Shown: positions 41,699 through 52,333, counted from the stretch's first letter. The stretch is DNA of 64,000 bases from Thermoanaerobaculia bacterium (GCA_036399915.1 DASWME010000013.1:1724-65723), one strand, 5' to 3'. Notes: generated from the letters alone by a model not told the origin. Numbers and translations: made by a program.

Positions 41699-43270
41699 AT
41701 GGCGACCAAGATCCGGGTAGCGGGATCGGAGACGCCCGCGCGCGAGCGGGTGCTCACGCCACAGGCGCTGGAGTTCGTGGCGGAGCTGCAGGGCCGGCTC
41801 GGCGAGGCGCGGGACGACCTGCTGCGGCGGCGCCTCCTGCGCCAGGAAGACCTCGCCCGCGGCATCGGGCTCGACTTCCTGGAGCACACCGAATCCATCC
41901 GCAGCTCGCGCTGGCAGGTCGCGCCGGCGCCGCCGGACCTCGAAGACCGCCGCGTCGAGATCACCGGCCCGGTCGAACGCAAGATGATGATCAACGCCCT
42001 CAACTCGGGGGCGAGCGTCTTCATGGCCGACTTCGAGGACGCCCTCTCCCCCACCTGGGAGAACGTCGTCGAGGGCCAGGCGAACCTCATCGACGCCGTG
42101 CGGCGGCAGCTCGACTACCGCAGCCCCGAGGGCAAGGAGTACCGGCTGAACGAGATGACGGCCACCCTCCTCGTCCGCCCGCGCGGCTGGCACCTGGTGG
42201 AGCGGCACGCGGTCCTCGGCGAGACCCCCGTCTCGGCCAGCCTCTTCGACTTCGGCCTCTACTTCTTCCACAACGCCGACGAGCTGGTGAGCCGCGGCAC
42301 CGGCCCCTACTTCTACCTGCCGAAGCTCGAGAGCCACCTCGAAGCGCAGCTCTGGAACCACGCCTTCGAGACCGCCCAGGACCTGCTCGCCATCCCCCGC
42401 GGCACCGTCCGCGCCACCGTGCTCATCGAGACCATCAGCGCCGCCTTCGAGATGGACGAGATCCTCTGGGAGCTGCGCGAGCACGCCGCAGGCTTGAACG
42501 CCGGCCGCTGGGACTACATCTTCAGCATCATCCGCAAGTTCCCCTCGGGCGGCGCCGCGCTGCCCGACCGCTCGCAGGTCACCATGACCGTGCCCTTCAT
42601 GCGCGCCTACACCGACCTGCTGGTCGCCACCTGCCACCTGCGCGGCGCCCACGCCATCGGCGGCATGGCGGCCTACATCCCCAGCCGCCGCGACGAGGAG
42701 GTCAACCGCGTCGCCCTCGCCAAGGTCCGCGAGGACAAGGAGCGCGAGGCCCGCCAGGGCTTTGACGGCACCTGGGTGGCCCACCCCGACCTCGTGCCGG
42801 TCGCCAAGGAGGTCTTCGACCGTCACCTGGGGGACCGGCCGCACCAGAAGGACGTGCTCCGGGATACGGACGTCAACGTCACCGCCGCCGACCTCCTCGA
42901 CTTCCAGGTGCCAGGCGGCCGCATCACCGAGGACGGCGTGCGCTCGAACATCTCGATCGCCCTGCAGTACCTCGACTCCTGGCTCCAGGGCATGGGCGCC
43001 GCCGCCATCCGCAACCTGATGGAAGACGCCGCCACCGCCGAGATCTCCCGCTCCCAACTCTGGCAATGGAGCCAGAACGGCGCCTCGATGGACGACGGCC
43101 GCCGGATCACCCCCGAGATCTACCGCGAGTTGCGCGACGAGGAGCTGGCCGCCCTCGGCGGCCCTGACCGCGGGCGGCTGCGCCAGGCGGCCGAGATCCT
43201 CGATTCGCTGGTGCTCAGCCCGGCGTTCGTGCCGTTCTTGACGATCGAGGCCTACCGCTACCTGGATTAG
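41699..43270 (+). CDS. aceB: Malate synthase A
   Basis: [73 protein letters not shown]. Confidence 0.95.
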
Positions 43271-43283
43271 AGCGTCCGCCGGC
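43161..43283 (+). repeat. Left copy (attL-like) of the aceB 3'-end direct repeat
   Basis: Gapless match to 52211-52333; 20 mismatches in 123 nt by hand count. Confidence 0.9.
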
Positions 43284-43830
43284 GCAACGACAAGGCCTGC
43301 CCGCGCAGTCGGTGGATCCGCCGGCGCGGCGAGGACGTCCGCCGGCGCCGCGACACCTCCCGCCTGCAGCTCGACGAGGCCCGCCCGCGTAGCTGGTTCA
43401 TCCGCCTGCGCAGTTGGTCGAACCGCCCGCGTCTCGACAAATCCCGCCTGCAGCTCGACAAGGCCCGCCGGCGCGGCGAGAGCGTCCGCCCGCGTCTCGA
43501 CAAGGCCCGCCTGCCTGGCCGGTTGATCCGCCCGCAGCTCGACGAGGCCCGCCTGCGCAGTTGGTTGACCCGCCGCTGCAGGCGGGAGGACAAATTGCTC
43601 AGGCGGTAGGCCCGCCTGCTCAGGCGGCTGAGCAAATGACCCAGGCGGAAGGCCCGCTTGCCCAGGCGGGAGGACAAATTACTCAGGCGGCTGAGCAAGT
43701 TACGCAGGCGGGAGGACAAACTGCGCAGGCGGGAGAACAAATTGCGCCGGCGGTTGGCCAAATTCCTCGGGCGGACGAGCCAGCTGCGCAGGCGGGAGAA
43801 GAAATTGCGCCGGCGGTAGGCCCGCCGGCG
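43276..43830. repeat. Bipartite 21-bp array: 15 CCGCCNG-core units then 12 inverted CNGGCGG-core units
   Basis: Cores fall exactly every 21 nt (43276...43570; 43579...43810); the two cores are reverse complements. Confidence 0.92.
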
Positions 43831-43881
43831 CCGGCACGAGAAAGGAATGACAAGCGCGCCTTCGAAGGCCTGGCCCCCGGC

Positions 43882-44991
43882 TCAGGCGAAAGGCACCGGG
43901 CTCACGCGGACGCCCTGCAGCCGGAACGCCCGCCGCAGTTCCGGGGCCAGGAAGCTCCACTGACGGCGGTCCAGCCGCCCGGCCGCGGCGTCCTCCGCAT
44001 AGATCGCCAACGCGCCCAGCGCCAGGTCGAGGCCCGGCCGGCCCGCGAAGCGCGTGGCCAACTCCTCCACAGGGGCGCTCAACTCCCCGCCTCTCCCCAG
44101 CTCCCTCAGCACGAGCCCCAGATCGATCGTCGCCAGAGTGGTTTCGGGAAGCAGGCGCCGCGCGATCAGCTTGCGCCGCACCGCCTCCAGCAGGGGCTCG
44201 GCCGCCGCGACCTCGCCCGCGCCTGCAGCCACCCGGCCCTCCATCCAATACAGGGCGAACAGCGCCTTCTCATGGCGCACCCCTCCGTAGAGCCTCCAAG
44301 CGCTCTCGCGGGCCTGCCTCGCCTTCGCGGCCTCGCCGGCTGCCGCGAAGCAGAGCGCCAGGCCCAGGCCGCTGCGCACGGCCAGCCAGGCCTCCCCCGC
44401 GCGCTCCAGCGCCCGCCAGGCCCGCCGCAGCAGCGGCGCCGCCCACCCCGTCTCGCCCTCCTCCACATACAGCAGGCCGAGCAGCGCCCGGCACGCCTCC
44501 TCCTCCTTGCCATTCTGCGCCTGGCCAAAGAGCTGCAAGCCGTGGTGCAGCAGCGCGGCGGCTTCCGCGGTGCGCCCCTGGTCCCAGCGCAGCAGGCCCA
44601 GGGCGCGGCAGAACCGCCCGCGGCCCGCGGCTTCGAGCGTAAGGTACTGCGCCCGCTCCAGAAGGGCTTCCGCGGTTTCGACGTGGCCCATCAGCCGGCG
44701 CGCCGTGGCCGTCAGGCACAAAGCGCGCGCCAGGCCCTCGCTCTTGGCCGCGGGCGCGAGCCTGCCGCGTGTGCCCAGCCGCACGCAGAGCTCCGCCCCC
44801 AGGGTCGCCAGCTCGTTGGCCCGCCGCGGCGCGAACGGCAGCGCGGCCTGCGCTTCCTCCAGCACCAGCTCGTAGAGCTCCAGGCTGTGAAAGCGCTCCT
44901 CCTTTACGCGCTCCATCCGCTCCTCCCCGGCACCCGCCATGAGCTCGCCGAGCAGGCGCACCGTCTGTGGCTTCGATTTGGGAGGGCTCAT
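43882..44991 (-). CDS. TPR-like protein without HTH (related to 20262-21425)
   Basis: LTATARRLMG, LGLLRWDQG, LYWMEGRVAA, LATIDLGL; ATGA-coupled to the upstream gene. Confidence 0.8.
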   Translation of the reverse strand: MSPPKSKPQTVRLLGELMAGAGEERMERVKEERFHSLELYELVLEEAQAALPFAPRRANELATLGAELCVRLGTRGRLAPAAKSEGLARALCLTATARRLMGHVETAEALLERAQYLTLEAAGRGRFCRALGLLRWDQGRTAEAAALLHHGLQLFGQAQNGKEEEACRALLGLLYVEEGETGWAAPLLRRAWRALERAGEAWLAVRSGLGLALCFAAAGEAAKARQARESAWRLYGGVRHEKALFALYWMEGRVAAGAGEVAAAEPLLEAVRRKLIARRLLPETTLATIDLGLVLRELGRGGELSAPVEELATRFAGRPGLDLALGALAIYAEDAAAGRLDRRQWSFLAPELRRAFRLQGVRVSPVPFA

Positions 44992-45218
44992 TCTTCGTCC
45001 TCAGAGGCGGCCGCGCTGAGGTCGTCGATGGCAGGCACGACCAGATCGATGAGCACGCAGCCGATCACGTCGCGCAGCTCCGGCTCCACGTCCCCCAGGC
45101 GCACCCCGTGCTCGGGTTGCGGCGGCAGGGCTGCGGAGATGCGCTTCAACCGGTCGCGGATCGCATACAGGTCCTGCACCACCTCGCGGAGTTGCTCCCG
45201 CGCCTCGGCCTCGGTCAT
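44988..45218 (-). CDS. Small helical 'PAIDDL' protein (paralog of 13359-13604)
   Basis: LYAIRDRL...LRDVIGCVLIDLVVPAIDDLSAAA. Confidence 0.7.
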   Translation of the reverse strand: MTEAEAREQLREVVQDLYAIRDRLKRISAALPPQPEHGVRLGDVEPELRDVIGCVLIDLVVPAIDDLSAAASEDEE

Positions 45219-51786: not shown

Positions 51787-51819
51787 TTCAAAAAAAGGAT
51801 CGCCTGAACCGGCTCGCGG

Positions 51820-51888
51820 TGTCAAGCGAGAGAGATGGCGGCATTTCCGAAACAATCCATTGACAGTTCGGAAGGGTGGTCATAGTCT
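51820..51888. promoter_or_regulatory. Back-to-back sigma70 promoters with operator-like inverted repeat
   Basis: TTGACA on - (51825-51820) and on + (51860-51865); + -10 TAGTCT at 17-nt spacing; TTCCGAA-N15-TTCGGAA. Confidence 0.7.
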
Positions 51889-51894
51889 TCGTCC

Positions 51895-52185
51895 ATGCAA
51901 CCAAACCATCCGCGTCGCGTTCGCAAGGGCGCCCGGCTGAAGGCTGGCCGGGCCGTGGCGAGCAGCCCGATCCAGGCCCGCCGCCTCGAGCTCAATCTCA
52001 CGCAGGACGATGTCGGCCAGATGGTAGGGGTGACGGGCCGGCACATCGCGAACATCGAAGCCGGCCGGGTCGCTCAGCCTCCGGAGTGGCTGTTCCTGCT
52101 GGCCGATGCGCTGAAGGTGGATCCGATGGTGCTGTTCCAGTGGTTCAAGGCGGCGCAGCGGAGCCTCGCCGGGGTGCGGACGTGA
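51895..52185 (+). CDS. XRE-family HTH regulator (cro-like position, probably leaderless)
   Basis: IQARRLELNLTQDDVGQMVGVTGRHIANIEAGR; ATG 6 nt after the -10 box. Confidence 0.85.
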   Translation: MQPNHPRRVRKGARLKAGRAVASSPIQARRLELNLTQDDVGQMVGVTGRHIANIEAGRVAQPPEWLFLLADALKVDPMVLFQWFKAAQRSLAGVRT

Positions 52186-52210
52186 GGGGCTCGCGGACGC
52201 TGGCGGCACC

Positions 52211-52333
52211 GGCCCGACCGCGGCCGCCTGCGCCAGGCCGCGGAGATCCCGGACGATCTGGGGCTCAGCCCGACGTTCGTGCCGTTCCTGACGATCGAGG
52301 CGTACGGGTACCTGGATTAGAATGTCCGCCGGC
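52211..52333 (+). repeat. Right copy (attR-like): orphan 3' end of malate synthase
   Basis: Encodes [34 protein letters not shown] vs ace[35 protein letters not shown]. Confidence 0.9.

Follow-up and report, generated by a model that had tools for sequence, protein, structure and literature searches.

The aceB 3' end recurs beyond an accessory insert

We analysed a 64,000-nt stretch of DNA (the window) from a Thermoanaerobaculia bacterium (GCA_036399915.1, DASWME010000013.1:1724-65723), which we take to belong to the Acidobacteriota. Here the malate synthase gene aceB is followed by accessory genes and then by a second, partial copy of its own 3' end. The gene itself (41699-43270, + strand) is intact, encodes a malate synthase A of 523 aa and matches the Pfam families MS_N, MS_TIM-barrel and MS_C. 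Its last 36 codons, the stop codon and the following 13 nt form the functional copy R1 (43161-43283, + strand); the same 36 codons, stop and 13 nt recur as a displaced, non-functional relic, R2 (52211-52333, + strand), in direct orientation at an offset of exactly 9050 bp, with 103 of 123 bases equal in a gapless alignment. For comparison, ungapped 123-nt matches on both strands of the window have a mean of 35.6 equal bases (standard deviation 5.7), and the next best reaches 63, which places R2 at z = 11.9. R2 remains in the aceB frame, keeping the TAG stop and 11 of the 13 bases after it, and the 14 codons that differ between the copies divide into eight synonymous and six non-synonymous changes. 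An earlier note on this DNA had described the gapless repeat and had concluded, from the many synonymous differences, that both copies were once coding; both statements are borne out.

The edges of the repeat are sharp. Immediately outside it, identity is at background (11 of 61 bases upstream and 15 of 57 downstream) at the 9050 offset and at all neighbouring offsets, and on the upstream side no further homology was found at shifts from -6 to +11 nt. An extension of the repeat through a 5-nt gap, suggested by MAFFT, was rejected, as its 21 matches in 49 positions equal background. The layout of R1, insert and R2 is present in two independent assemblies (ENA ERZ27253115 k141_281227 and JGI 3300034402), and one Logan contig covers R2 together with both of its flanks; the arrangement is therefore not an assembly chimera. 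The repeat is real, and about 8.9 kb of accessory DNA lies between the functional end of aceB and a decayed copy of that end.

The distal copy is decaying and appears to descend from a different allele

Comparison with ten relatives distinguishes the two copies. R2 carries four states that occur in none of the ten, all non-synonymous and all at invariant sites (43160, 43200, 43212 and 43223 in the numbering of the window's R1), and its replacements include L to P and V to G inside the conserved ILDxLVL motif. With four replacements at such sites, R2 is a relic in neutral decay. R1 has synonymous states at 43165, 43204, 43252 and 43258 that are rare or absent among these relatives, as well as the Ser and Arg codons that mark a clade formed by the window and the lineages L165 and L167. 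R2 is without these codons: three states common to R1, L165 and L167 are missing from it (at 43201, at 43205-43207 in the Ser codon, and at 43256, where the Arg codon begins), and R2 therefore branches outside that clade. Its states at 43201 and 43256, and at a number of third positions, are those of the outgroup. In all eight cases of a third position at which exactly one copy agrees with L001, the matching copy is R2. It is thus moderately secure, on these sequence comparisons, that R1 and R2 are two diverged alleles and not a fresh duplicate; R2 would be what remains of the 3' end that was resident before, and R1 would be contiguous in its ancestry with the present gene.

Variable cargo and recurrent aceB relics downstream of the gene

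The nearest genomes are metagenome-assembled genomes (MAGs) labelled Thermoanaerobaculia, whose aceB products are 81-92% identical to that of the window in amino acid sequence. A scan of GTDB representatives with aceB returned L001 as the nearest, at 85% amino acid identity, and none that shares the downstream flank; a scan of metagenome contigs gave nothing above 70% identity among the matches listed. Upstream of aceB, gene order (VWA, VWA, HD) is kept in L001, L002, L168, L170, L172, L174 and L175. In translated comparisons with L001 and L002, synteny ends exactly at the aceB stop codon, which is also where it ends in L168, and downstream of it no relative matches the window. The simplest, insert-free state is seen in L174 and L169, where HvfC_N, MbnB and DUF420 genes abut the aceB stop and the right flank differs from that of the window. 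Elsewhere aceB is followed by a XamI-type restriction-modification system (L168 and L172), by HEC-01 A and B (L001, 11620-13732) or B and A (L165, 2583-4425), by AbiU, CopG and a 143-aa gene (L171, 3265-4977), or by small open reading frames (ORFs) and antitoxins (L170). AbiU and the HEC-01 A/B pairs, which occur in two orientations or subtypes, are candidate defence systems. Since the content after aceB differs in every relative, the 3' flank of the gene is a variable, largely defence-type hotspot in this clade. The 5' flank varies as well: isocitrate lyase, directly upstream of aceB in L174, L175, L169 and L165, is absent there in the window, where a 234-aa gene with no family matches (40808-41512, - strand) takes its place, and the 5' flank in L172 holds a PIN toxin-antitoxin pair and a 560-aa gene.

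Fragments of aceB behind the cargo recur in this clade. In L165/L166, whose aceB is 92% identical at the amino acid level, a 466-nt relic with frameshifts (codons 369-523) lies behind the two-gene HEC-01 cargo. In L171 (84-85% identity), the three-gene cargo is followed by about 310 nt of aceB relic (codons 419-523), which has lost 1 nt, contains an in-frame stop and is 92% identical to that genome's own functional aceB end, while L170 (82%) retains an eroded fragment spanning codons 406-455. With the window included, four of 11 close lineages keep a partial aceB copy. No relic was present in the seven other close lineages, nor at 159 more distant aceB loci searched with the window as positive control. 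The point at which a relic begins varies by up to 350 nt between lineages (codon 488 in the window, 369 in L165, 419 in L171 and about 406 in L170). On the right, homology ends no more than 13 nt from the stop codon in every case: at +13 for the window, at +1 for L165 and at -12 for L171. Relics that accompany other cargo, lack integrases and begin at varying points argue against a fixed attachment (att) site.

Recombinant history of aceB and of the adjoining cassette

The aceB gene has a mosaic history. In the triplet of the window, L165 and L167, informative sites in the central 918 nt divide 70:13:23 and make the window and L165 sisters, whereas from 42779 to the stop codon they divide 27:27:24, with no sister pair. 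The two site patterns differ (chi-square p = 4e-5), and the best breakpoint lies near 42748. The first ~160 nt of aceB, which adjoin the variable 5' flank, are likewise star-like in their site patterns. Within the L165 relic, tracts like the functional copy of L165 alternate with window-like tracts. Such mosaicism, in the relic and in aceB itself, is the trace that exchange of cargo by crossovers inside aceB would leave. In sliding identity and in counts of states unique to the window, a crossover signal is inseparable from the generally faster evolution of the C-terminal region of aceB.

A second line of evidence comes from the left part of the insert, which consists of a repeat array and a three-gene operon on the - strand. 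The array (43276-43840, 565 nt) lies between the convergent aceB and the last gene of the operon. It comprises about 15 units in forward orientation, each of CCGCCNGC plus 13 nt with a period of 21 nt, followed by about 12 in reverse. The motif pair occurs 14 times here, where chance predicts 0.05, and is missing from the rest of the window. Folding of the region gives a long hairpin (z = -5.8), and a search of Rfam returned no match. Protein binding and bidirectional termination are guesses at the role of the array. In a Bacteroidia MAG (L065, 12064-12208), repeats of 21-nt period stand about 500 nt downstream of aceB and are complementary to the sequence just after the aceB stop, which may be coincidence. 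The last gene of the operon (43882-44991) encodes a 369-aa, all-alpha, TPR-like protein with a GC content at third codon positions of 0.90. It has no match in Pfam, NCBIfam or PADLOC, is weakly similar to the TPR part of the HTH-TPR genes further along the insert, and has 36 homologues, mostly annotated as TPR proteins, in Thermoanaerobaculia MAGs. The possibility that it is a cryptic integrase was rejected: the protein is rich in Ala and Leu, its homologues are annotated as TPR proteins and it matches no recombinase family. The middle gene (44988-45218), called as a gene, encodes a 76-aa protein with a paralogue of 42% identity at 13389-13595, in a related cassette of the same window (locus 1, 12949-16870). 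The remaining gene (45215-45631) encodes a 138-aa protein that also has a locus 1 paralogue and no family match; its HLLSGCPRC motif (CxxC) makes it look, by eye, like a candidate anti-sigma zinc finger.

A homologue of the 369-aa protein, 82% identical, is encoded elsewhere in the same two metagenomes, on the contigs L176 and L177. On these contigs the array and three-gene operon, with 86% nucleotide identity to 43381-45594, are fused to an extracytoplasmic function (ECF) sigma factor gene. A diverged, paralogous array adjoins the homologue in both (at about 2560-3060 in L177), and because this copy accompanies the paralogous operon we assign the array to the cassette. At 3040-3110 of L177, and at the matching place in L176, 25 nt of the aceB 3' end replace the last eight codons of the sigma gene; the 13-nt spacer of the R1 type and the array come next. 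The 25-nt aceB tail bears the distinctive R1 synonymous states GCC and CGC, and when the junction is set against L165, whose sigma gene is intact, the join falls at 2-4 nt of microhomology. The cassette therefore once adjoined an R1-type aceB, a piece of which it took along when illegitimate recombination moved or joined it.

Searches for a recombinase, an excision product and an empty site

The earlier note had stated that no integrase is present, and this holds: no integrase, transposase or recombinase family was matched among the called genes of the insert in Pfam, NCBIfam or PADLOC. The unassigned DNA amounts to only 443 nt (50978-51420) and is already occupied by an RHS fragment and a 51-aa ORF, leaving no room for a broken recombinase. 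Integrases beside aceB in other genomes had been suggested as a further place to look, and the cargo of L165, L171 and L170 contained no recombinase of any kind. Plasmid and phage records contained nothing similar to the insert beyond a match to the RHS core, and the only tRNA of the window, at 19778, is far off.

The same note had proposed a search for excised circles and for empty-site alleles of aceB, neither of which turned up. Among the assembled contigs of four runs over 40000-56000, none bears a circle or empty-site junction, and those of the source run contain no joint between 43161 and 52333, although contigs drop rare variants. One contig joint, from 43757 to 51428, whose shorter side spans only 33 nt, was set aside as repeat noise. 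An exact empty site for the window was not found, since no relative shares its right flank; the nearest approach is in L174 and L169, where aceB abuts HvfC and the right flank is different.

The remainder of the insert and its right flank

Beyond the operon, two HTH-TPR regulator genes lie on the + strand. The first (45807-47279) matches Pfam TPR_12 and HTH models and the second (47624-49051) matches HTH_31, HTH_3 and TPR_12; the second is a tandem duplicate of the first, and the gapless 91% nucleotide identity over 1077 nt between 46209-47285 and 47981-49057 marks a recent event. Between them, on the - strand, lies a Cys-containing ORF of 77 aa with a repeated GCGMDPxG motif (47274-47507), which was called as a gene and has a paralogue at about 15554-15712 (- strand). 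In both cassettes the small ORF stands between the paired HTH-TPR genes. The two ORFs have no family matches, and their products may be secreted or modified peptides. Locus 1 as a whole is 35-53% identical to the genes of the insert at the amino acid level and consists of an HTH protein and a 135-aa protein on the - strand followed by two HTH-TPR genes on the + strand, with the small Cys-containing ORF between these. Further related TPR genes are found at 20184-21425 of the window and at 9663-10976 of L165. The ORF downstream of locus 1 (16871-19177) was considered as a relative of the RHS fragment described below, and was rejected because the two proved unrelated on comparison.

The RHS fragment (49103-50977, + strand) is truncated at its 5' end. 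It retains only the last YD repeats, the RHS core (Pfam RHS_repeat and RHS; PF03527, TIGR03696) and a C-terminal domain of about 100 aa, unusual as a tip, that matches the serum amyloid A family of Pfam (SAA, E = 3e-23), and so falls short of a full-length Rhs toxin. Its frame opens right behind the stop codon of the upstream TPR gene, which identifies it as an orphan or truncated RHS fragment. Directly 3' of its stop, a 51-aa ORF with a hydrophobic N-terminal stretch (50987-51142, + strand) would be a candidate immunity protein, its position being the sole basis for this proposal. It is followed by an orphan RHS piece of 38 aa (51199-51312, + strand), 76% identical to residues 233-269 of the RHS fragment. 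The right end of the insert carries two divergent genes: one for a 121-aa protein (51421-51786, - strand; called as a gene, without a family match and HTH-like by eye only), and one for a 96-aa XRE-family HTH protein (51895-52185, + strand; Pfam HTH_3, E = 1.6e-9) whose stop lies 25 nt before R2. PADLOC recognised no defence system in the window's own cargo.

To the right of the relic lies an older accessory layer (52399-53391, + strand), made up of a 115-aa lipoprotein-like ORF and a ParD-like/ParE toxin-antitoxin pair (52878-53391; Pfam Unstab_antitox, PF09720, and ParE_toxin) within a stretch of lower GC content between R2 and UbiA. Core genes resume at 53392 with UbiA (- strand), then DUF92, epimerases and LptD. 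The overall GC content changes from part to part (71.5% in the array and cassette, 67.7% in the HTH pair, 63.7% in the RHS pieces and 64.7% in the lipoprotein gene and ParDE, against about 70% in the backbone). Given this GC mosaic, the tandem duplication and the truncated RHS pieces, the 8.9 kb is not one clean unit. Only its left part, the repeat array and the three-gene operon, recurs elsewhere as a block, and the earlier description of the whole island as a single mobile unit is not supported.

Discussion

The structural part of the earlier interpretation, in which DNA was inserted at the 3' end of aceB together with a gene-completing copy and the former end was displaced as a relic, survives this analysis. 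As to how the arrangement arose, we favour, with moderate confidence, homologous recombination anchored in aceB combined with illegitimate recombination, that is, sequential displacement at a variable hotspot. What follows on the donor, on which way the DNA moved and on the detailed pathway is our inference. New cargo would have arrived on DNA of a related strain that already carried cargo beside aceB. One end of the incoming DNA would have recombined homologously inside aceB, so that the gene stayed intact and gained the 3' end of the donor (R1, its 13-nt tail and the array), and the other end would have been joined illegitimately within the resident aceB. The resident sequence downstream of that join would then survive behind the new cargo as R2, the last 36 codons and 13 nt. 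Selection would let only recombinants with an intact aceB persist, which would explain why the duplication looks gene-restoring. Integration of a circularised fragment bearing an aceB 3' piece and cargo, through one homologous crossover, would lead to the same product, and the two routes are not separable. The tandem duplication of the HTH-TPR gene and the truncation of the RHS pieces would date from later remodelling of the 8.9 kb.

The locus has what sequential displacement predicts: a conserved anchor with variable cargo, a distal fragment of the anchor with variable junctions, and mosaic ancestry of the anchor. Several observations weigh on the other side. Homologous recombination between alleles 8-16% apart is inefficient. 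Neither a pre-insertion allele, with an R2-type aceB leading directly to the lipoprotein gene, ParDE and UbiA, nor a relic-free donor allele was found among the relatives. About 19 sites underlie the case for R1 and R2 as distinct alleles, and the mosaic signal does not resolve to the window's last 123 nt in particular. At the relic junction of the window (52210/52211) there is no clear microhomology, only GGCGGC, 5 nt out of register. Finally, each of the relics in the window, L165 and L171 is nearest to the functional copy of its own genome, as duplication in place would also predict.

The exchange of cargo beside a core gene is familiar from the defence hotspots flanked by core genes, where it is normally scarless. 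The aceB flank resembles these in that the same core flank holds HEC-01, AbiU, restriction-modification or toxin-antitoxin genes in related genomes, and differs from them in that the partial flanking core gene persists in four of the 11 close lineages. Islands that target tRNA or tmRNA genes are flanked by direct repeats of the target 3' end that are nearly 100% identical. Direct repeats of a target-gene 3' end flank the insert here too, but the target is protein-coding, the repeats are only ~84% identical and there is no integrase. The closest parallel is the homology-facilitated illegitimate recombination leading to sequential displacement that has been proposed for effector-immunity modules of the Vibrio cholerae type VI secretion system (T6SS) and for orphan arrays of Rhs and contact-dependent inhibition (CDI) genes (PMC5361080). 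Those arrays share with the aceB locus a conserved upstream anchor, variable downstream cargo, an old 3' end or module that is pushed distally and retained as an orphan beyond the newest module, and the lack of an integrase. In contrast to them, the anchor here is a housekeeping metabolic gene and not a toxin gene, the displaced piece is functionless, and the cargo consists of defence, toxin-antitoxin or regulatory genes. In both settings the mechanism is proposed and not demonstrated.

The earlier note had preferred a decayed or trans-mobilised integrative element. In a classical element of this kind, an attP with a substitute aceB 3' end would have recombined with the gene, R1 and R2 would be attL and attR, and the integrase would have been lost or would act in trans from elsewhere in the genome. 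The precedent is the integration of e14 or phage 21 into icd, which leaves the icdC pseudogene in Escherichia coli K-12 (PMC13626634, citing Hill et al.). The layouts agree: the insert lies within the 3' end of a central-metabolism gene, supplies a substitute 3' end and leaves a C-terminal pseudogene at its far side, so that direct repeats with the target-gene 3' end flank it. The divergent small regulators at the right end, one of them of the XRE family, are arranged as in prophage switch regions, and the final 50 nt of aceB, a highly conserved stretch, could represent an attB. The e14 element, however, encodes site-specific recombination and excises precisely, whereas here no recombinase is present in the window's insert, which also lacks space for a remnant of one, or in the cargo of the three relatives with relics, and the contigs contain no excision product, with the reservation already made that they drop rare variants. 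The relics of those relatives begin up to 350 nt apart and lie behind other cargo, as small as two defence genes in L165. The insert of the window is itself a mosaic without phage or plasmid similarity beyond the RHS core. We therefore consider an integrative element an unlikely explanation.

An origin in place, without horizontal transfer, seems to us equally improbable. Either a tandem duplication from codon 488 followed by partial loss, or an insertion at a staggered break that duplicated 123 bp, would have produced R1 and R2 as initially identical sequences. The affinity of each relic to its own functional copy is what such an event predicts, and paralogues of the cassette family are present in the same window and samples, with a backbone-like GC content in the array and cassette. 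This origin is at odds with the absence from R2 of the three states shared by R1, L165 and L167, as L165 and L167 do not carry the island, and with the differing histories of the 3' third and the centre of aceB. It would also need three or four independent events at one gene end.

The conserved last ~50 nt of aceB could instead be a dedicated landing pad in this clade, loaded repeatedly with defence, toxin or regulatory cassettes and with aceB tails of varying length, either by a chromosomal or otherwise trans-acting enzyme that the cargo does not encode or by a structure-driven process in which arrays like the 21-nt palindromic repeat take part; we hold this to be a rather distant prospect. 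That R2 is all that is left of a second, full-length aceB paralogue of ancient origin, overwritten in its 5' part, is highly improbable, as there is no aceB similarity upstream of 52211 at any offset, no second aceB copy lies within 10 kb at any of the 159 other loci, the relics of L165 and L171 each resemble their own gene, and the 83% identity of R2 to R1 together with the common 13-nt 3' untranslated region (UTR) identifies R2 as an allele and not an old paralogue.

The earlier note had also called aceB an unusual target. Across bacteria this is so, the relic being confined to this clade in our comparison with the 159 distant loci; within the clade it is not, since the aceB 3' flank is a recurrent hotspot. 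What the locus offers is thus a further example of a process already known, at an anchor gene that is unusual, recurring within one uncultured clade; it reveals no new type of mobile element. Its value lies in providing a sequence-level record of accessory-gene turnover beside a housekeeping gene in an uncultured, Acidobacteriota-like lineage of soil and biocrust, in which the fossil aceB tails of four lineages document untidy replacement events. Relics of this kind could serve as markers with which to find and order gene-replacement events at hotspots in MAGs, where integrases are absent and standard island finders fail.

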